IMG/VR virus record: IMGVR_UViG_3300020050_013619
Span: 1-64,000 of that record
Length of the DNA: 64,000 nucleotides
From: a virus
Lineage: Duplodnaviria > Heunggongvirae > Uroviricota > Caudoviricetes
Reading direction: 5' to 3' (one strand)
Below the pieces are notes generated by a model. The model was not told the DNA's origin and searched no databases. It saw nothing but the letters and a program-made list of their open reading frames with translations. Numbering within the stretch: the first letter of the stretch is position 1; each line of letters starts with the position of its first letter. Below are positions 1,815-62,859 of this stretch, in pieces. The position numbers and the translations under genes were made by a program.

Positions 1815-1880
1815 ATAATCGCCGCCATCAGCAAGGCGATAAGGAGAATTTTGATTAATTTAGTTCCTATCGTTATTTGA

Positions 1881-2666
1881 TTAATTTTGTTCAATTCTTT
1901 TGAATTCGACGACCCAAACAAAAGGGTTGCTATCGAGCGATTCTTTGCCGTTTAGTTTTTCCCAAAGTGTATAATAACTCTCTTTTGCTTCATACGGAAA
2001 GTGTTCAAAAGAACCGTCTGGCTTACGTGTTGGATAGCCATGTTCCATATCATCAAGGTAGTTTCTGTAACAATTACGATGACCACCACTGTCGGGGTCG
2101 TAGAAAGACGGTCTCCAGTTCATGTCACCTTCTATTTCTTCAACACCTTCCGCAATCGCGTCTGCTTCGCTAATTTCATGCAACCGTTCAATTGAACGTT
2201 CAGTAATTTGCAATTTGATACGGCAAGCGTGTTTGGGCATAAAAAGCGACGGTCTCTTACGCCATCCAGTAATTTCTCTTTTTTTTTCTAATTGCTTTGG
2301 CGGGCAATCGGCATATAAGTACGCTTTTGATGTCGCAAGTGTCCAGTCTTGGAACTTCCATTTTTGAGTACCTTTTTTAGTCGTGCCATTCTTTACCCAA
2401 TGCCCGTAAGCGTAAAACGTTTCACGAACCCAAAGCACATCGCCCACTTGACCGTAAGGGCATTTGCCTATCGAAAAATACTTTTCAGTCGGTTCATTAT
2501 TTTCGAATATCTCAAAGTAGTATTCGTTTTCATGGTAACTATCAAAACGACAATCTTTTGACGTTACTAACTTTTTTGAATTTACCGTCCGTCTCGTTTG
2601 TGTCTTCGTTCCGTTAAGTAAAGCACGAACCATGTCTGTGCTGAATAAAATTGCGTGTTCTTTCAT
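1881..2666 (-). CDS. ASCH (PUA-like) domain-containing protein
   Basis: N-terminal LFSTDMVRALLNGTKTQTRR plus GDVLWVRETF resembles the ASCH/YqfB signature (G-K-T-x-T-R, GDVLRV). Confidence 0.45.
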   Translation of the reverse strand: MKEHAILFSTDMVRALLNGTKTQTRRTVNSKKLVTSKDCRFDSYHENEYYFEIFENNEPTEKYFSIGKCPYGQVGDVLWVRETFYAYGHWVKNGTTKKGTQKWKFQDWTLATSKAYLYADCPPKQLEKKREITGWRKRPSLFMPKHACRIKLQITERSIERLHEISEADAIAEGVEEIEGDMNWRPSFYDPDSGGHRNCYRNYLDDMEHGYPTRKPDGSFEHFPYEAKESYYTLWEKLNGKESLDSNPFVWVVEFKRIEQN

Positions 2667-2920
2667 TGTAAATCAAGTTGAATTTGTTTAGAATAGCCCA
2701 TTTGGGCAGGTGTTACCAATTCATCGGTATTGTAATCGTACTGAAAAAAATTATTGATAAACTTAGTCTCGTATGTTTTTTTATCAATTTCGACCAATAT
2801 CATATTGCAGTCACGGCAATGCGTTTCCTTTTTTGGGCAATTGTGCGCGACTGCTTCACATGTCGGGTCGATGCAAACTTTGAGGACTTTTTTATCCTGT
2901 TTATCCATTACGTTGTCCAT
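2663..2920 (-). CDS. small zinc-ribbon protein (85 aa)
   Basis: Cys/His pattern CIDPTC...HNC...HCRDC; start and stop abut the neighbouring genes. Confidence 0.4.
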   Translation of the reverse strand: MDNVMDKQDKKVLKVCIDPTCEAVAHNCPKKETHCRDCNMILVEIDKKTYETKFINNFFQYDYNTDELVTPAQMGYSKQIQLDLQ

Positions 2921-4701
2921 TACGCTACCCGTTTTTTAGTCAAATAAGATGTTTTAATAACGCCATGCAACGACTCGACAAGAGCTTTAGCAATGGCAGG
3001 GGGAACGGCGTTTCCAATGAATTTCTTCATATCGGCTTGCGTACCACATAGGATATAATCCTTTGGAAAGCCTGTGATGAGTTTGAGCTCCTGCACGTTG
3101 AGCATCCGCATCTTTATTTCATAGATGCCGTAAATGCTCATAAATTCCTTGATTTGTTTGGTTGCTGGACTGTCGTCGTCCTTAATTTCAATAGCCAATT
3201 CGCCCGTCTCTGCTGTTACAAGATAAGGGGGCATCTTGTCCATTCGCGCAATCAAAGTGAAACAAGGGTCATCAACACTCCGACCATTTGACTTGTATTG
3301 CGGATTCAATAACCAAGACTTTTTACCGCTGACTGTTATCATTGATAGCCTATCTTTCGTTGTAACCGTAGGCGATGGCTCATCAATACTTGCTACGTTC
3401 TGACCTGATTTATAATACTTCGCTAAAAACGTGCAATGTATTTTGGATAATGCGTCTTTTGTACGCACTGTCGGCGCAGGATTGTCAATACTCGCCACAT
3501 GACCGTCGCCACTGTAATACTTTGCTAAAAACTGTTGTGCCGAAATGATGTACAATTGACCACCACTTGCTGTTAATGTGCGCGCAGGTGCATTGAGTGA
3601 CGGATTGCGCCCATTTGCACCAAAATTGTTTTGCATTAAGAATTTAGCAGTCGCCAAACCTAAGCGACCTTGACACGTCACCGTTGGGCATGGTCTATTG
3701 ACATCGCAACCAGCGTTGATACCTGTTTTGGCGTTATTGCTCAAAAACTTAGGCATAAAGTGAGCCTTGACAACCGATGCGTGTGGAATGGTTGTAATTG
3801 TACCAATAGGCTGCTCAATACTACTTACTTTATGCTCGGGTTTTCCGCTGTAATAATTGGCGATAAACGAATCTTTACCACCAGCGACATATTTGACCAA
3901 TCCCGCGTAAATACGCTCCAAAGTCTTTTCACTGAGGGGTATCTTACGGTCAAAAATGCAATTGCCTTCATCCTCAAAATTAAGGCACTCTTTGACAGGT
4001 CGCCACGGTTTGAGGTTTGACGAAAAAAGCGTACCCACTTTAGCAACCTTTGAGTGCGTGGGTTGCGGAAAGCGGATTTCGTACCCCTTTTTTGCAAAAA
4101 TGCCAAAGTAACGAACACGTGTTGTCGGTGCGCCGTAGTCGGCACAGTTCAAAATGCGATACTCGTAATTGAATCCATACGAGCACATTTTCTTGACCCA
4201 TTTTATGTAGTCCGTACCCTTGTCTTTACTGATGGGTTTGCCGTTTTCGTCCAATTTGCCCCAACTCATAAACTCCTCTACATTCTCGATGTAGATAAAG
4301 TCGAAGTCAAATACTTCCTCGTATCTGAAAAGGCTATTAGCTAATGTACGGCTGTCCTCATTCCGTGCGCCGCCACCTTTGGCTTTTGAGAAATGGACAC
4401 ACTCCAGCGAAAACCAGCCACATTTCTTAGCGTATGGGTTTTCTTGCAATTCCTTGTCCATCAACTTTTTGATAGGTTCAAGGTGTGCTGTGCGTATGTC
4501 TTCAATAGCGTGATAACAGTCAGGATAATTAGCACTGTGCGACATAATGGCTTTTGGGTCATGGTTGATACACGCAACCACTTTTGCAACACTGTTACCG
4601 TTCGAGTCAACAGCTTCGTGAATGCCGTGCGTTGTACCGCCTGCACCGCAAAAGCCATCAATAAAAAGTTGGGTGATATTATCGTTTACTTGCTTTGTCA
4701 T
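2920..4701 (-). CDS. DNA (cytosine-5)-methyltransferase with six tandem TRD-like repeats
   Basis: Motif I FCGAGG, motif IV-like ECVHFSKAKGG, motif VI ENV, motif VIII TTRVRYFG, motif X GNAV; six ~33-aa repeats of the form FLxxYxxG...PxPTxT between motifs VIII and IX. Confidence 0.8.
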   Translation of the reverse strand: MTKQVNDNITQLFIDGFCGAGGTTHGIHEAVDSNGNSVAKVVACINHDPKAIMSHSANYPDCYHAIEDIRTAHLEPIKKLMDKELQENPYAKKCGWFSLECVHFSKAKGGGARNEDSRTLANSLFRYEEVFDFDFIYIENVEEFMSWGKLDENGKPISKDKGTDYIKWVKKMCSYGFNYEYRILNCADYGAPTTRVRYFGIFAKKGYEIRFPQPTHSKVAKVGTLFSSNLKPWRPVKECLNFEDEGNCIFDRKIPLSEKTLERIYAGLVKYVAGGKDSFIANYYSGKPEHKVSSIEQPIGTITTIPHASVVKAHFMPKFLSNNAKTGINAGCDVNRPCPTVTCQGRLGLATAKFLMQNNFGANGRNPSLNAPARTLTASGGQLYIISAQQFLAKYYSGDGHVASIDNPAPTVRTKDALSKIHCTFLAKYYKSGQNVASIDEPSPTVTTKDRLSMITVSGKKSWLLNPQYKSNGRSVDDPCFTLIARMDKMPPYLVTAETGELAIEIKDDDSPATKQIKEFMSIYGIYEIKMRMLNVQELKLITGFPKDYILCGTQADMKKFIGNAVPPAIAKALVESLHGVIKTSYLTKKRVA

Positions 4702-5562: not shown

Positions 5563-5601
5563 ATAAAAAGCCGTTATACCCCCTCAGTATAACGGCTTTG
5601 T
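5563..5601. terminator. bidirectional intrinsic terminator between convergent genes
   Basis: Stem GCCGTTATA/TATAACGGC with the CCCCCTCAG motif in the loop, followed by a T-run. Confidence 0.6.
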
Positions 5602-5615
5602 TTTTTACTCAAATA

Positions 5616-6512
5616 TCAAAACGGTAAATCCTTAGAACGAAAACCAGCCGCATTCTTATGTCCACCGCCTTTGCGACCCTCAAACTCAAATTGTGATGCC
5701 AGCTCTGCACAGTCAACAGGATTTTCCTTGTTTGCACCTTGACGCAGCGACACTTTCCAAGATTTTGTCTCATAAACATAATAAGCGAATGCCAATAAAT
5801 CGGGTTGCTCCTGGGCGTATCGTGGTGTGTTGTACCACATAGCACCATCGCCACCACCGATTGAAAGGAGTGTTTTATGACCCCGCCATTCAATGAGATT
5901 GGCAAACTTAGATTCCTTGTTGACCTGACTTTGTAAGTAGCCCAAAATGCAAACACCTTCGTGATATAGGCGCAAAACAGGAGCTTTTTCAATTGCCGCA
6001 AAATCACTTACTTTAGAGACCGCACCACGTACGGCATATTCAAAAGGCAATATTTCTGTTTCCCAATCATTTGAGCCAAAGCCATCAAACACATCATACC
6101 GACCAACCAATTCGACGAACTTAGGCTCTGTTTGATTGGGGTAGAAATACCGCCAAGTTAAACGGCACGCTGCCATTGTGCCGTACTTGATGATGCACAA
6201 GTCTTTGAGTCTGTCAAATGCTTCGTCATACGTTTTTTTGTGGTGGTCAATCCATGTCAACTGATTGAATATCGCTAATTCAACCATATCCTCCAACGGT
6301 AACGAAATATCCAGCATATAGACCAACGACCTGCGTGGAATGCTTTTGATTTCATCCAATGACCGACCGTAATCATAGCCGATTAGAACAACTTCAAAAT
6401 CAATTTCTAAAAGGGCTTTTTGGGCGATGTAGGCAGACAACAAACCGTCGTTGTCCGCATCGTGGTGAATGATATATACCTTACTCATTGTCAATAAAGT
6501 TTTTAAGTTCAA
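5616..6512 (-). CDS. DHH/DHHA1-family phosphoesterase (NrnA/RecJ-like nanoRNase or phosphodiesterase)
   Basis: Motif I IIHHDADNDG, DHH motif WIDHH, DHHA1 motif GGGHKNAAGF. Confidence 0.8.
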   Translation of the reverse strand: MNLKTLLTMSKVYIIHHDADNDGLLSAYIAQKALLEIDFEVVLIGYDYGRSLDEIKSIPRRSLVYMLDISLPLEDMVELAIFNQLTWIDHHKKTYDEAFDRLKDLCIIKYGTMAACRLTWRYFYPNQTEPKFVELVGRYDVFDGFGSNDWETEILPFEYAVRGAVSKVSDFAAIEKAPVLRLYHEGVCILGYLQSQVNKESKFANLIEWRGHKTLLSIGGGDGAMWYNTPRYAQEQPDLLAFAYYVYETKSWKVSLRQGANKENPVDCAELASQFEFEGRKGGGHKNAAGFRSKDLPF

Positions 6513-6776: not shown

Positions 6777-7676
6777 TTATTGTGCGAAAATAGTCTTAGC
6801 GATTGGCTTACAAAGTTGTTTTGTTGCATACAAAGCGTTATCCGTAATTTTTCTTTGCCATGCCGAGTAAGTAGGCGACCAACGATAACCGTGCGATTTG
6901 AGTTCTTTACGTGTTTTGTCATCGGGTTTTTCATCAAATAAAATCTGAACTCTATCGGCTTCATAATTCACTTGTACCTCACCACCATCAAACTGCCAAC
7001 CTTTGACTTCACCTGATTCTTTTTGTTTTTCACGCAAAGCAATTTTGTTTTCCAATTCCTCTACACGACTTTCAAGCCTTTTGATATTGGCATTGTTATT
7101 CGTTAATTCATAGGACTGAAAACCTTTTGATTGATAGCTGTATGGCGGGTTAAGTAAACTATGTATGGTTTGTGGTTTAATACCCATTTCTGTCAATAAT
7201 TCAACCGCATTACTTTTGCGACAAATAGCGTTGATTTCTTTCATGTACTTCTGCTTGTATGAACGTCTCGCCAAATCAGTACGTGCCTTTTCCAATTCAC
7301 CATCGGGCGTTGTGGGTCTTGCCTCTCTGTTGACACGTTTGAAGAACTTATTACGCCAATCATTAAAGATATTATAGGCGTTTTCCTCCGACCGATTGGC
7401 TTTTTCCGCTTTACGTGTTGGGAACTTAGATGGTCCTGTTATCATAGACGAAAAGCAATTGCACTTACGGTGCATCCAAGCAACAAAAAGGTTTTCAAAC
7501 TTTGTCTCATAGCGAGATATGGTTTCATCATCAGCACCACCGTTACGCAGTTGTTCAATATCAGAGTCAAGCATTTGACTGTATTCGCGGACATACATTT
7601 CACCACGTTGTTCGGGTCTGAAACTTGTCCAGTAGTGCGCTCTTACGCACAATTCTAAGTGTTTTTGTAATTTCAT
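6777..7676 (-). CDS. hypothetical protein (299 aa)
   Basis: Long ORF with a central coiled-coil region; no motif recognised. Confidence 0.5.
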   Translation of the reverse strand: MKLQKHLELCVRAHYWTSFRPEQRGEMYVREYSQMLDSDIEQLRNGGADDETISRYETKFENLFVAWMHRKCNCFSSMITGPSKFPTRKAEKANRSEENAYNIFNDWRNKFFKRVNREARPTTPDGELEKARTDLARRSYKQKYMKEINAICRKSNAVELLTEMGIKPQTIHSLLNPPYSYQSKGFQSYELTNNNANIKRLESRVEELENKIALREKQKESGEVKGWQFDGGEVQVNYEADRVQILFDEKPDDKTRKELKSHGYRWSPTYSAWQRKITDNALYATKQLCKPIAKTIFAQ

Positions 7677-49379: not shown

Positions 49380-50147
49380 ATGCACTATATTGTATCAGTT
49401 CATAAATACCTATCAACAATGGATGCGTCATCAAAAGGACTTATCACGGAAGCGATAAAAACAAAAATCGAAAGAATCATCAATGTTTTTGAAAACGATG
49501 ATTTTGATAAGCCCAATTACGGCTTACTGAAGGTCTATCAAGATGGGCGCAAGGTGAGAGGTATGAAAACTTTTCAAATCACCTACGGTGTGAAGCAAAC
49601 CACCGAGCAGGGCAGTTTAGCAGATTTGATTGAACTGTACTGCGCGACAACGGGCGCAAAGTTTGGAAGCGAGCTGCGTAAGTATTTGCCGCAAATTGGT
49701 ATCAAACCTTTGTACAACAACGGCTCATTCAAAAGGCTACTCATTGCGGCAGGTGATGATCCAATCATGAAGCAATGCCAAGACCAATTTTTTGATGATG
49801 TGTATTGGAAACCTGCGAAGAATTGGTTTGATGCTTTCGGGTTTAAGCTACCCCTCAGTATGTTGGTGATTTACGATAGTCAGATTCATTCAGGCGGCGT
49901 GTTACAGTTTTTGCGCAACCGATTCACCGAAAAGCCGCCAAGTTTTGGGGGCGATGAAAAACGCTGGGTTGGTGATTATGTCAAGGAGCGCGATAAATGG
50001 CTTGAATTCAATGAAGATTCCTTGCTCCGTAAAACAGATTATCGAACAGACTGCTTTTTAGAGCAAATGAGAAATGACAATTGGCTACTTGACAAAACGG
50101 TACGCATACTTGACGGTAATGGTCATTTGAAAGCCAATGTCTTGTAA
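49380..50147 (+). CDS. putative endolysin, lysozyme-like superfamily (GH46/chitosanase-like fold)
   Basis: ENDDFD...YQDGRKVRGMKTFQITYG resembles the GH46 N-terminal catalytic region; precedes a spanin-like gene pair. Confidence 0.45.
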   Translation: MHYIVSVHKYLSTMDASSKGLITEAIKTKIERIINVFENDDFDKPNYGLLKVYQDGRKVRGMKTFQITYGVKQTTEQGSLADLIELYCATTGAKFGSELRKYLPQIGIKPLYNNGSFKRLLIAAGDDPIMKQCQDQFFDDVYWKPAKNWFDAFGFKLPLSMLVIYDSQIHSGGVLQFLRNRFTEKPPSFGGDEKRWVGDYVKERDKWLEFNEDSLLRKTDYRTDCFLEQMRNDNWLLDKTVRILDGNGHLKANVL

Positions 50148-60342: not shown

Positions 60343-60385
60343 TAAATTTGTGATTGAAATTAAATAATTCAACGGACTATCAATA
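60343..60385 (+). promoter_or_regulatory. early promoter plus leader motif
   Basis: TAAATTTGTGATTGAAATTAAATAATTCAACGGACTATCA. Confidence 0.5.
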
Positions 60386-60401
60386 TTACATCAATCGGAA
60401 A

Positions 60402-61232
60402 ATGGAAAAGAGGAAGAACGGCACGCTGTTAAAGTATCCCATTACGGACGAATTCCTTGAATTCATGCGTCAGAATTACTTAATCAAAACCAACAAGCAG
60501 TTATTGGAAATGATAAGTCAAAAGCCTGAATGGTCATGGTGTAATTTTGGCGCATTGACAGCGATTAAGCACCGTTACAGATTTATCAAGCAGGAGCAGG
60601 TGAATTACACGCCCGAAGAAATACAGTTTGTCAAGGACAACTATTTGACAATGGGCGATGTAGAAATGGCGCAAATTTTAGGACGCAAGTTCAAAAGCCT
60701 GCACAAATTACGGCGTGTCACTCTGAACTTGCACAGAGATAAAGAAAGTTTAGCAGTGCTTATGAAGCAAGTTGCCCAAAAAGGACACGAAGGCAGAGCG
60801 AGAAAGATGTCAGAAGGAACATTTTACAACCCACGTTACAGGCTTTTAGGCGAAATTTATAGAAATAAGTGCAGCCGTAATTATTGGCTCATAAAGCCCA
60901 GCAGCGATAAGCTGTCAAGACCGATTTATCTACATCGCTTCCTTTGGGAGCGTGAATTCGGTCCTGTTCCGAAAGGTTACGTGATTCGTTTTAAAAACGG
61001 CATCATCCCCGATGACCCCCTCAGTATCACAACCGATATTTTAGAGTGCGTTACAAATGGCGAACACGCTCAAAAAGTCACTCAATTGATGAGTGATAGA
61101 TACTTGGCTGGTCGCTTTCACTACAAAGTCAGAGGTATTGATTTGGCAGCATTGAAAGCATCGGGCTTACTGGATGCCAAACGCCAGCAAATAGAAATAA
61201 GTCGAAAAATTCATTCATTCAATAACAAATAA
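60402..61232 (+). CDS. HNH-like (possibly degenerate) endonuclease-domain protein (start adjusted to the ATG after the leader)
   Basis: IYLHRFLWEREFGPVPKGYVIRFKNG resembles the HNH_3 HR..we...G..p.g core, but the second His is not evident. Confidence 0.4.
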   Translation: MEKRKNGTLLKYPITDEFLEFMRQNYLIKTNKQLLEMISQKPEWSWCNFGALTAIKHRYRFIKQEQVNYTPEEIQFVKDNYLTMGDVEMAQILGRKFKSLHKLRRVTLNLHRDKESLAVLMKQVAQKGHEGRARKMSEGTFYNPRYRLLGEIYRNKCSRNYWLIKPSSDKLSRPIYLHRFLWEREFGPVPKGYVIRFKNGIIPDDPLSITTDILECVTNGEHAQKVTQLMSDRYLAGRFHYKVRGIDLAALKASGLLDAKRQQIEISRKIHSFNNK

Positions 61233-61806: not shown

Positions 61807-62859
61807 ATGTCAAAATTAAAAAAAGAAGTAGGGGTATTACACCCCGAACAAAAAGAACTTATAAGTCTCTTTGAACAAGCTGCTTATCGGCATTCCTATT
61901 GGGATACGTTCAATACGCTTCTCGACTACGGTATCAGTCAATACATCTTTACAGGCTTTACAAAATCCGATGATTTTCAATTCGACAGCAATTGGAATGA
62001 TAAGGAAATAGGGCTATTTCCTAAAATGCTGGATGAAGTCATCCGCTTAAACCGTGAACGGTGTCGTCTGTGGACAGGTCAAAGCGGTTGGTATGATGCC
62101 TTTGGGTGTTTATTTGAATCACTCGTTGGTAATTTTGGCAAATCCGCCATGGGTCAATTCTTCACACCTGAAGTTATGTGTGATTTAATGGCTCAAATAG
62201 TCATTGGTAGCAGTGATGGCGAGAACAGTATTGGTGAATTGGGCGACATCTTAACAGCTGTTGACGGTAATATCGGACGGCAAAAAACACAGTACAAACC
62301 CGAGACAATAGCCGAACCTGCCTGTGGTTCTGGTCGCTTAATACTTGCTGCCAACAATATCAACCCTGCGTTGTACATCGTCGCCAACGACCTTGATAAG
62401 GTGTGCGCCAAAATGTGCGCGCTCAATATGTGCCTAAACGGTGCTATTGGTGAGGTGAGTTGCAACGATGGTCTTTTTGCGACAGAAAACAATTTTAGAT
62501 TCGCTTACCGTGTTGTGCCACTTACTTCAATCATCACAGACAGTTTTTCTTCACTGCATTTTCTGAAAATGGTCATGCCAAGTGTGGTCAAGCAATACTG
62601 CTTAATACCTATGCAATTTAAGGATTGCCGCTACAACGATGAAAAAGTCTATGCCGAACAAAACAGGAAACATAAGGAGCAGCAAGAAAGTTTGGCGGCA
62701 ATGCGAGAGCAACACGACGCACATAGAAAAGCCATTCATCCAGATACTTTTCAAGGTGTTTTGTTTGAAGCGGAAAAAGTCGCCAAGGCAGCAAAACCCA
62801 AAGCGGCAAATAAGCAAGTTCAAAAAATATCTTTTGAACCATTACCAACACTGTTTTAA
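61807..62859 (+). CDS. N6-adenine DNA methyltransferase-like protein (HsdM/gamma-class N-terminal half, lacking a canonical NPPF/DPPY motif)
   Basis: FFTPEV motif, SAM motif I EPACGSG, CAKMCALNMCLNG (a.mN..l.G) as in HsdM-type MTases; no (N/D/S)PP(Y/F) found downstream. Confidence 0.55.
   Translation: MSKLKKEVGVLHPEQKELISLFEQAAYRHSYWDTFNTLLDYGISQYIFTGFTKSDDFQFDSNWNDKEIGLFPKMLDEVIRLNRERCRLWTGQSGWYDAFGCLFESLVGNFGKSAMGQFFTPEVMCDLMAQIVIGSSDGENSIGELGDILTAVDGNIGRQKTQYKPETIAEPACGSGRLILAANNINPALYIVANDLDKVCAKMCALNMCLNGAIGEVSCNDGLFATENNFRFAYRVVPLTSIITDSFSSLHFLKMVMPSVVKQYCLIPMQFKDCRYNDEKVYAEQNRKHKEQQESLAAMREQHDAHRKAIHPDTFQGVLFEAEKVAKAAKPKAANKQVQKISFEPLPTLF

Follow-up and report, generated by a model that had tools for sequence, protein, structure and literature searches.

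A phage C5-cytosine methyltransferase with six tandem TRD-like units, a candidate multispecific orphan enzyme

Multispecific methylases are a textbook example of how a phage can beat many restriction systems with one protein. To our knowledge, the only examples come from a few Bacillus phages and have two to five recognition domains. M.SPRI, M.Phi3TI, M.SPBetaI, M.Rho11sI and M.H2I are multispecific C5-cytosine methyltransferases (C5-MTases) of temperate Bacillus phages, all of them orphan enzymes with one catalytic core; multiple target-recognition domains (TRDs) are arrayed in one polypeptide against many restriction-modification systems (PMC12707154; PMC8936443), and the enzymes are thought to shield against restriction (PMC12707154). 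Their TRDs, each about 30-47 aa long, follow one another directly between motifs VIII and IX, carry an (S/P)-x-x-T-(L/V/I) core (SPTITT, SHTLSA and PAFTVNT in M.SPRI, spaced 30-47 aa; SPTLTT and PAFTVNT in M.Phi3TI), and have been proven to function independently. Other described enzymes with the same fold and order of motifs I-X, namely the monospecific bacterial enzymes M.HhaI and M.HaeIII and the phage carboxymethyltransferase CmoX (8yf3), have one recognition domain and a canonical Pro-Cys motif IV.

Here, we describe a C5-MTase of 593 aa that shares the phage origin, the orphan status, the single catalytic core and the contiguous modules between motifs VIII and IX with the Bacillus phage enzymes, carries six such units and has an L-E-C motif IV. 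It is encoded in a window (the whole analysed stretch of 64,000 nucleotides) that comes from a phage genome and also carries small terminase and baseplate genes. The three minus-strand open reading frames reported in the first-pass annotation of this DNA were recovered with the limits given in Table 1. A megablast search with the locus found no match among 50,697 phage records, and the hosts are apparently Bacteroidota, going by the closest homologs of the MTase. The gene is an orphan in a phage context: no endonuclease adjoins it here or in the loci of six relatives, and its relatives sit in phage replication or early modules, with no restriction enzyme called alongside.

Table 1. Features of the methyltransferase locus; positions refer to the window.
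Feature	Positions	Strand	Basis or remark
Weak terminator-like hairpin 3' of the three-gene unit	1822..1839	-	Consensus scan; region counts not above shuffle expectation, suggestive
ASCH-fold protein, 261 aa, with insertions and C-terminal extension	1881..2666	-	phrog_874
Cys/His-rich small ORF, 85 aa, possible zinc ribbon	2663..2920	-	Coupled to both neighbours
C5-cytosine DNA methyltransferase gene, 593 aa	2920..4701	-	ORF, PF00145, phrog_116, Foldseek
Motifs IX-X, residues 528-580, with G563-N564-A565-V566	2962..3120	-	PDB sequence matches, GNAV invariance
R6, residues 464-498, type C constant terminal unit, NPQY..PCFTLIARMDKMPPYL	3208..3312	-	Unit HMM 43.0 bits
R5, residues 425-457, type A second copy, core PSPTVTT	3331..3429	-	Unit HMM 47.1 bits
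R4, residues 391-423, type A, core PAPTVRT	3433..3531	-	Unit HMM 41.2 bits
R3, residues 354-389, type G, core PARTLTASGG	3535..3642	-	Unit HMM 29.2 bits
R2, residues 319-353, type D, core PCPTVTC	3643..3747	-	Unit HMM 29.3 bits
R1, residues 279-313, type B, core PIGTITT	3763..3867	-	Unit HMM 39.3 bits
Conserved linker/small-domain segment ahead of the repeats, residues 213-278	3868..4065	-	Invariant columns
Catalytic domain, motifs I-VIII, residues 13-212: FCGAGG, SLECVHFSKAKGG, ENV, TTRVRYF	4066..4665	-	Pfam stretch 13-212, AF2
Motif IV variant S-L-E-C-V-H-F-S-K-A-K-G-G, residues 98-110, catalytic Cys101	4372..4410	-	Homolog invariance

Catalytic core and motif IV

The 593-aa protein is a member of the C5-cytosine MTase family with intact catalytic residues. 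The Pfam profile PF00145, the check proposed in the first-pass annotation, matches it at 86.2 bits (E = 3.8e-24, curated cutoff 22), phrog_116 ('DNA methyltransferase') matches at 3e-60, and Foldseek with the structural model retrieves DNMT1, MET1, M.HaeIII and 3g7u at E-values of 1e-9 to 1e-12, while the TIGR00675 match (4e-18, 66 bits) lies under the model cutoff of 100.65. All motifs quoted earlier are present exactly, with FCGAGG at residue 17, SLECVHFSKAKGG at 98, ENV at 139, TTRVRYF at 193 and GNAV at 563. In the AF2 model, pLDDT is 75-92 across most of residues 13-212 and 50-76 in the segment 213-278, where many columns are invariant, from F211 to G275. The homolog alignment leaves C101, E139-N140-V141, R195 and R197 unchanged, as well as GNAV in motif X, and S98, E100, C101 and F104-G110 are invariant across 12 homologs. 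The best PDB sequence matches (8yf3, DNMT1 and HaeIII) fall in motifs IX-X.

The canonical Pro-Cys dipeptide is absent, with motif IV reading L-E-C and the nucleophilic Cys kept, in contrast to P-C in the Bacillus phage enzymes. The earlier description of a non-canonical catalytic motif therefore stands as to the replaced Pro-Cys, but the variant is not peculiar to this protein: among 150 diverse representatives, motif IV reads x-E-C in 129, x-D-C in 9 and P-C in 1, and x-E-C is conserved over more than a thousand clusters. S-L-E-C is thus a subfamily signature rather than an oddity of one protein. Given the invariance of the Cys, the ENV Glu and the two Arg and the wide conservation of x-E-C, the enzyme is probably active. 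As for the methyl donor, CmoX picks Cx-SAM via an Arg that replaces the motif X Asn and contacts the Cx-SAM carboxylate (PMC12783734), whereas the phage enzyme retains Asn564. On the strength of this residue, the carboxymethyltransferase identity that the 8yf3 match had prompted was rejected, and motif X reads as the signature of a methyl rather than a carboxymethyl donor.

Repeat units and their variation across the family

The six repeats noticed in the first-pass annotation are real and lie, as described there, between motifs VIII and IX, and each has a P-x-x-T-(L/V/I) core; the strings quoted start at residues 279, 319, 354, 391, 425 and 463. Their stated length of about 33 aa is close to the measured period of 34-39 aa between cores, which are found at residues 298, 337, 372, 408, 442 and 479. 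Pairwise z-scores against shuffles reach 22.9 for R4/R5, 12.8 for R2/R5 and about 10 for R1/R4 and R1/R5, and each of the six units scores 29-47 bits with a unit HMM built from the units of other proteins. By unit type, the array has the architecture B-D-G-A-A-C. R4 and R5 are 66% identical at the nucleotide level, and of 33 codons 13 differ synonymously and 12 non-synonymously, so their duplication is old, and residues 466-494 of R6 are nearly invariant among homologs. R3 resembles the single kPSPTLTASGG element that CmoX carries ahead of motif IX.

Residues 269-490 have an AF2 pLDDT below 50 (12-sequence alignment). A unit profile searched against PDB sequences found no solved C5-MTase TRD at E<=10, and the unit HMM matches M.SPRI and M.Phi3TI over 7-13 residues only, that is, over the core, which is too short for homology; it is therefore their motif and their position that point to the units being TRDs. 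The likeness to the Bacillus phage enzymes extends to a common module placed last, PAFTVNT in SPR/phi3T and type C/J in the family described here. Still, BLASTP aligns the protein with the SPR/phi3T enzymes at E = 0.019 across 68 residues in motifs VI-VIII only, phmmer finds nothing between them, and six units (up to 10 in the family) compare with two or three visible cores in phi3T/SPR. While independent module function is proven for the Bacillus enzymes, the units of the present protein are TRD-like by sequence. The enzyme is best read as analogous to the SPR/phi3T enzymes, yet belonging to a separate subfamily.

That subfamily, marked by S-x-E-C, numbers over 1,700 clusters at 50% identity, and its members are plentiful in phages and prophages of gut Bacteroidota. 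For example, enzymes of Bacteroides/Phocaeicola prophages (about 609 aa; Bacteroides phage BS-TP2 gp38, P0078) are 47-48% identical to the protein over 96-99% of its length and share the SLEC motif IV, the constant terminal unit and the phage early-module context. They differ in having 7 units instead of 6, in their unit set, which includes a penultimate type E unit (MNTNF..TITANRK) that is missing here, and in adjoining an N6/N4 MTase rather than the Cys-rich ORF and the 261-aa ASCH-fold protein. P0078 occurs in 1174 index blocks of the contig collection.

Contrary to the earlier suggestion that six units are unusual, the number of units per family member runs from 1 to 10, with a median of 5, and is 7 in 115 of 120 close homologs. 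Protein length follows 382 + 41 x units (r = 0.74), and about 13 unit types form 140 distinct architectures across 151 proteins. The types keep a near-fixed order in which each is variably present and the last is constant: A precedes F in 49:0 cases, F precedes E in 31:0 and E precedes C in 32:1, with B and D found in both orders (26:28), and type C is terminal in 82 of its 83 occurrences. In P0390, a 396-aa relative, the constant terminal unit is the sole unit. Relatives with 65-70% identity already differ in whole units, and identity is 43-57% within a unit type, 51% in the catalytic core and 31% between types. The family thus varies by whole units, which are under purifying selection. The layout of 1-10 modules is the norm in a very large, uncharacterised family of phage enzymes. 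Our literature search, with older classic papers outside its scope, found neither large TRD arrays outside Bacillus phages nor experiments on any member of the S-x-E-C subfamily.

Proposed function and alternative readings

With slightly better than even confidence, we read the protein as a multispecific orphan MTase whose six TRD-like modules serve to protect phage DNA from several restriction systems. It would be an active SAM-dependent phage C5-MTase of the S-x-E-C subfamily, in which six paralogous modules of roughly 35 aa, each built on a P-x-x-T-(L/V/I)-T core, form an ordered array and would work as the tandem TRDs of the Bacillus phage methylases do. A single catalytic core serving alternative recognition modules would methylate several short sequences on progeny phage DNA, which would then enter the next host already guarded against several restriction systems. 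At least two tandem modules are the mark of such enzymes, and six with a T-(L/V/I) core occupy residues 279-498 between motifs VIII and IX. The anti-restriction role proposed in the first-pass annotation, as for the Bacillus enzymes, fits the orphan status and the early-module context of the relatives. From these features we infer TRD function for the units, activity of more than one of them, and an anti-restriction role exerted at the sequences they target. On the other side, the near-fixed unit order would also fit a single ordered repeat domain; moreover, CCGG, GGCC and GATC are almost wholly purged from the phage genome, and the phage is therefore not reliant on methylation at these classical targets, so that some units may be relics. 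GCGC, GCNGC/GCWGC, AGCT and TCGA are sites that the genome does not avoid.

The first of these observations underlies the strongest alternative, which we nevertheless regard as unlikely: that the repeats make up a single composite DNA-binding domain, a scaffold of ordered beta-repeats with one, perhaps relaxed or very short specificity, in which the number of units tunes affinity, reach or processivity and adds no targets. An order kept almost strictly is what ordinal positions in a single repeat domain would typically show, the smallest relative has no unit other than the constant terminal one, the units lack statistical similarity to solved TRDs, and AF2 gives no sign of independent modules. 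However, the internal units are individually dispensable, each type being present in only part of the family, and B and D are found in either order. Furthermore, each type has distinctive loop residues conserved at core-like levels, which a generic scaffold would not need, and the core motif is shared with the experimentally mapped independent TRDs of SPR and phi3T (PMC8936443).

Purging of restriction sites bears on a second alternative, in which most units are inactive relics ('pseudo-domains') and only one or two, possibly just the terminal unit, still work, leaving a mono- or bispecific enzyme. Elimination of CCGG and GGCC from the genome implies that methylation is not the only or main protection, minimal relatives make do with the constant type C/J unit alone, and type A is duplicated in the present protein; additionally, Lange et al. 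reportedly described pseudo-domains in the classical Bacillus phage MTases in 1991. We nonetheless hold this to be quite improbable, given that conservation of the units roughly equals that of the catalytic core and that both copies of the old R4/R5 pair are intact, whereas relics should decay. Finally, it is very improbable that the altered motif IV denotes another chemistry, such as carboxymethyl transfer, or a catalytically dead DNA binder, as the replaced Pro and the best PDB sequence match to CmoX might indicate, since the CmoX determinant is missing from GNAV, no CmoA, TET or glycosyltransferase was found by Pfam among the 31 window proteins scanned, and the catalytic residues and x-E-C are maintained as described above.

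If the units are working TRDs, as the multispecific reading holds, an enzyme family that is unrelated to the Bacillus one and much larger would have evolved the same strategy, with as many as ten units per array. More tentatively, and with rather less than even confidence, the family could be a combinatorial recognition-cassette system, in which each of the approximately 13 unit types corresponds to one DNA target and an enzyme strings together as many as 10 such cassettes in a set order. A single protein of this kind would methylate far more motifs than the multispecific MTases characterised so far, and comparing the unit content of enzymes with their 5mC motifs could reveal which unit stands for which motif. 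Working TRD units would also be a natural source of small, exchangeable DNA-recognition modules with which methyltransferases could be engineered, and would help to explain the large and mobile 5mC methylome diversity of the Bacteroides fragilis group (PMC10333322). Nanodisco motif calls are available for 268 genomes of this group, and prophage enzymes may be silent in lysogens. The interest thus lies in the family-level pattern, as the enzyme studied here is an ordinary family member.

Neighbouring genes and the CCCTCAG element

The MTase gene and the two other genes of the unit are translationally coupled through TAATG and ATGA overlaps. The 85-aa ORF has no match in Pfam, PHROG or NCBIfam and just two homologs among 5.8 billion clusters, with C16, C21, C28, C35, C38, H26 and H34 invariant; the earlier label 'Zn-ribbon' has these conserved Cys and His residues of three sequences as its sole support and finds no profile match. 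For the 261-aa protein, the proposed ASCH domain holds at the level of fold, an ASCH/PUA-like beta-barrel, but not at that of the Pfam ASCH profile: PF04266, the suggested check, is not matched at E<=1, a profile search of PDB sequences found nothing, and a precomputed PF04266 match exists in just 1 of 120 homologs. ASCH proteins (PF04266; 3s9x, the E. coli ac4C amidohydrolase YqfB, PH0355) are about 100-160 aa long, and the phage protein differs from them by an insertion at residues 28-75 and a C-terminal extension.

A conserved synteny of MTase, Cys-rich ORF and ASCH-fold gene was rejected, as both neighbour families are absent from the +/-5 kb around every MTase relative fetched. Likewise, four ASCH-like homologs have small upstream ORFs that are unrelated to one another, and the MTases near those homologs are of the N6/N4 type and lie 3 kb off. 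The co-transcribed Cys-rich ORF and ASCH-fold protein are thus neighbours of the enzyme locally, in this phage lineage, and are not partners conserved alongside it.

The first-pass annotation had also suggested that the MTase may relate to the pervasive motif CCCTCAG, a link that finds no support. CCCTCAG is part of an asymmetric element of 10-11 bp that, among all MTase relatives examined, is found only in this phage lineage; its over-representation is not the pattern expected of a sequence targeted by methylation or restriction, and the link was rejected as unsupported.

The methyltransferase and its coupled neighbours

The three open reading frames that the first-pass annotation placed at 1881-4701 are all present on the minus strand at these coordinates; TAATG and ATGA overlaps couple them translationally, and a weak terminator-like hairpin lies on their 3' side. 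The methyltransferase matches Pfam DNA_methylase, the family proposed for it (PF00145; 3.8e-24, 86 bits against a cutoff of 22), and PHROG 116 'DNA methyltransferase' (3e-60), and its quoted peptides are exact, starting at residues 17 (FCGAGG), 98 (SLECVHFSKAKGG), 139 (ENV), 193 (TTRVRYF) and 563 (GNAV). The reported replacement of the invariant P-C of motif IV by E-C is present, but it is not peculiar to this protein: among 150 representatives of 50%-identity clusters, x-E-C occurs in 129 (L-E-C in 111), x-D-C in 9 and P-C in 1. Invariant across 12 aligned homologs, down to 50% identity, are S98, E100, C101 (the nucleophilic Cys) and F104-G110, and likewise the Glu of ENV, the two arginines of motif VIII and the Gly-Asn of motif X. 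Judged by this conservation, the variant motif IV looks like the hallmark of a subfamily, and the enzyme looks active. Its best PDB sequence match is the phage carboxymethyltransferase CmoX (8yf3), in which Arg-350, at the position of M.HhaI Asn-304, selects Cx-SAM (PMC12783734). Because the query keeps the motif X Asn (GNAV) and lacks the CmoX determinant Arg, ordinary methyl transfer is expected.

Features in the window
Feature	Positions	Strand	Remarks
ASCH-fold protein ORF	1881-2666	-	261 aa
Small Cys/His-rich ORF	2663-2920	-	85 aa
Methyltransferase ORF	2920-4701	-	593 aa
Bidirectional terminator-like hairpin	5567-5599		between convergent genes; perfect 13-14 bp; CCCCCTCAGTA element (5581-5587) forms loop
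DHH/DHHA1 phosphoesterase	5616-6512	-	
Primase-like protein	6777-7676	-	phrog_19458
Glycosyl hydrolase family 46 (chitosanase-like) protein	49380-50147	+	
HNH_3 endonuclease	60354-61232	+	292 aa; N6_Mtase-family gene one gene further on
N6_Mtase-family protein	61807-62859	+	350 aa; second methylase of the window

Neither neighbour is a conserved methylase partner, since no member of either family occurs within 5 kb of the methyltransferase in any relative fetched. The ASCH-fold family has invariant K21, T24, R25, R26 and E82, including a G-x-K-T-x-T-R-R motif; in a profile comparison with weak statistics, this motif lies on G-R-K-T-I-T-I-R of YqfB, with K21 on K21 and T24 on T24. Lys21 and Thr24 are catalytic residues of the E. 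coli YqfB ac4C amidohydrolase, and the correspondence hints at a putative hydrolase rather than a mere reader. ASCH genes that are small and unrelated lie a few kb from the methylase in Bacteroides prophages and phage BS-TP2, at most a loose association. The 85-aa protein has two homologs only in 5.8 billion protein clusters, with which it shares invariant C16, C21, H26, C28, H34, C35 and C38 as well as the conserved segment KKETHC(R/K)DC, and its reported identity as a zinc ribbon is plausible on this residue pattern.

An ordered array of repeat units

The six repeat strings between motifs VIII and IX are exact (starts at residues 279, 319, 354, 391, 425 and 463), and their similarity is borne out by pairwise local scores against shuffled controls, with z = 22.9 for the fourth and fifth units (R4/R5), 12.8 for R2/R5 and about 10 for R1/R4 and R1/R5. 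They score 29-47 bits against a unit HMM built in three rebuilding rounds from about 1,660 units of other proteins, whose consensus reads F-L-x-K-Y-Y-S-G-x-G-x-x-S-I-D-E-P-A-P-T-L-T-T-K-D-x-x-A-L-V; the P-x-x-T-(L/V/I) cores of the query are spaced 34-39 residues apart.

Within its very large family, the query is unexceptional. A word-indexed search returned at least 8,000 matches, the top ones among those listed being full-length proteins of about 609 aa with 47-48% identity from Bacteroides, Phocaeicola and Caudoviricetes, and one such homolog is listed in 1174 blocks of the contig collection's index. When 1.84 billion representatives were searched exhaustively, 1,756 clusters (396-1,213 aa) passed E<=1e-30, and tblastn detected members in 285 deposited phage genomes, including Bacteroides phage BS-TP2 and phages of Cellulophaga, Pseudomonas (F116, PMBT3), Burkholderia, Vibrio, Gordonia and Mycobacterium. 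Six units had been considered unusual and prove typical: HMM counts range from 1 to 10 with a median of 5, seven occur in 115 of the 120 closest homologs, and protein length follows approximately 382 + 41 x units (r = 0.74). Four members, P0376 (1213 aa), P0343 (966 aa), P0275 (880 aa) and P0288 (866 aa), have 10 detected units, long N-terminal extensions or both; the extensions run several hundred residues ahead of motif I and may be fused domains.

Clustering of 829 units from 151 proteins separated about 13 recurring types, each marked by its own loop residues, for example G (FIxQRNGGxPxSKVxSxDxPARTITATGGNQ), H (LDKQYSGxxNHQSIDxPAG), D (..TGxNxGxSxDEPCPTITTQNRLG) and C/J (NPQ..PCFTLIARMDKxPPYL). 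Although 140 distinct architectures occur among these proteins, the order of types is nearly fixed: B and D either way (26:28), then G, A, K, H or I, F, E, and lastly C or J, with A ahead of F in 49:0 and E ahead of C in 32:1 cases. The query array reads B-D-G-A-A-C. Type C/J stands last in 109 of 114 occurrences and varies hardly at all among close homologs, and a 396-aa relative (P0390) has no other unit.

The database label of the family is only 'DNA cytosine methyltransferase', and a 2025 review cites multi-TRD (target-recognising domain) enzymes from Bacillus phages only. We found no description of ordered arrays of 1-10 TRD-like units for this family in the literature, of which older work and REBASE were covered in limited part.

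Possible roles of the units

Bacillus phage methyltransferases array multiple TRDs in one polypeptide, giving protection against many restriction systems (PMC12707154; PMC8936443). In the variable regions of M.Phi3TI (SPTLTT, PAFTVNT) and M.SPRI (SPTITT, SHTLSA, PAFTVNT), taken from the original GenBank records, the cores are spaced 30-47 residues apart and the shared PAFTVNT module comes last. The query resembles both in its core, in the location within the protein and in having variable modules followed by a constant one, while its six units outnumber the two or three cores seen in these enzymes. The likeness is limited to motif and layout: alignment of the unit HMM to the classical TRDs covers 7-13 residues only, a 132-sequence unit profile had no PDB match at E<=10, and no whole-protein relatedness is detectable beyond motifs VI-VIII (E 0.019). 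AlphaFold2 models the catalytic core confidently and residues 269-490, the repeat region, at pLDDT below 50. Because the likeness stops there, the model of the repeat region does not separate beads on a string from one repeat domain, and the fixed type order fits either arrangement, we lean only guardedly towards the units being TRDs that would give one enzyme several targets. That they instead form a single composite domain is doubtful; all types other than C/J are present in part of the family only, and homologs at 65-70% identity already differ from the query by whole units, so units are individually dispensable. An array made up mostly of relics is improbable: between-protein identity within a unit type (43-57%) is close to that of the catalytic core in the same pairs (51%), against 31% between types, which points to selection comparable to that on the enzyme core, and R4 and R5 are only 66% identical in nucleotides (of their 33 codons, 13 differ synonymously and 12 non-synonymously), indicating an old duplication of which both copies were kept.

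Genomic setting, site avoidance and the CCCTCAG element

In the relatives' loci fetched, the gene always lies in a phage replication or early module, beside helicase, replication initiator, SSB, NinG or VRR-NUC genes and frequently near a second N6/N4 methylase, and no restriction enzyme was called beside it; taken by its neighbours, this is the setting of a presumed orphan anti-restriction methylase. The directly downstream gene is PAPS-reductase-like in the closest relative (contig L004, 7752-8957) and Escherichia phage Eeyore, a radical-SAM gene in two further loci (L006/L007, 6908-7753), and elsewhere an N6/N4 methylase; the first two, partners that recur but differ, might hint at additional DNA modification chemistry. 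The window is phage DNA too, and its genes include those for small terminase, baseplate J and V, a primase-like protein and a DHH phosphoesterase. Its glycosyl hydrolase family 46 protein may serve in lysis or as a depolymerase, for which it would be an unusual candidate.

Restriction sites are avoided to an extreme degree in the window: CCGG (0 sites, about 128 expected), GGCC (2, about 157), GATC (15, about 222) and CTAG (7, about 62), and GATATC, ATGCAT, GTATAC, CATATG, GGCGCC, CTTAAG and CTCGAG are missing. No avoidance is seen for GCGC (ratio 0.95), GTAC, GCNGC (190 sites) or GCWGC (95 sites). The purging of CCGG and GGCC suggests, indirectly, that the methylase need not cover them, and unavoided cytosine-containing sites are better candidate targets.

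CCCTCAG occurs 31 times in the 64-kb window, against about 2 expected, on both strands and at about one site per 2 kb from 1076 to 63498 (for example at 3932-3938, within the methyltransferase gene). Its copies fall in several frames and point either way relative to genes. Conservation extends beyond the heptamer to an element of 10-11 bp, (A/C)C-CCCTCAG-TA: position +7 is T at every one of the 31 sites, and position -1 is C at 30 of them. The closest relative's contig is also enriched in the element, with 5 copies in 9 kb, whereas the other relatives' loci lack it. The proposed link to the methyltransferase finds no support, since a long asymmetric word that is over-represented behaves in the opposite way to a methylation or restriction target. 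The element looks like a selected DNA-level signal, putatively a nick site, binding site or Chi/uptake-like site; more speculatively, the HNH_3 endonuclease, a candidate site-specific nickase, could have a connection with it.
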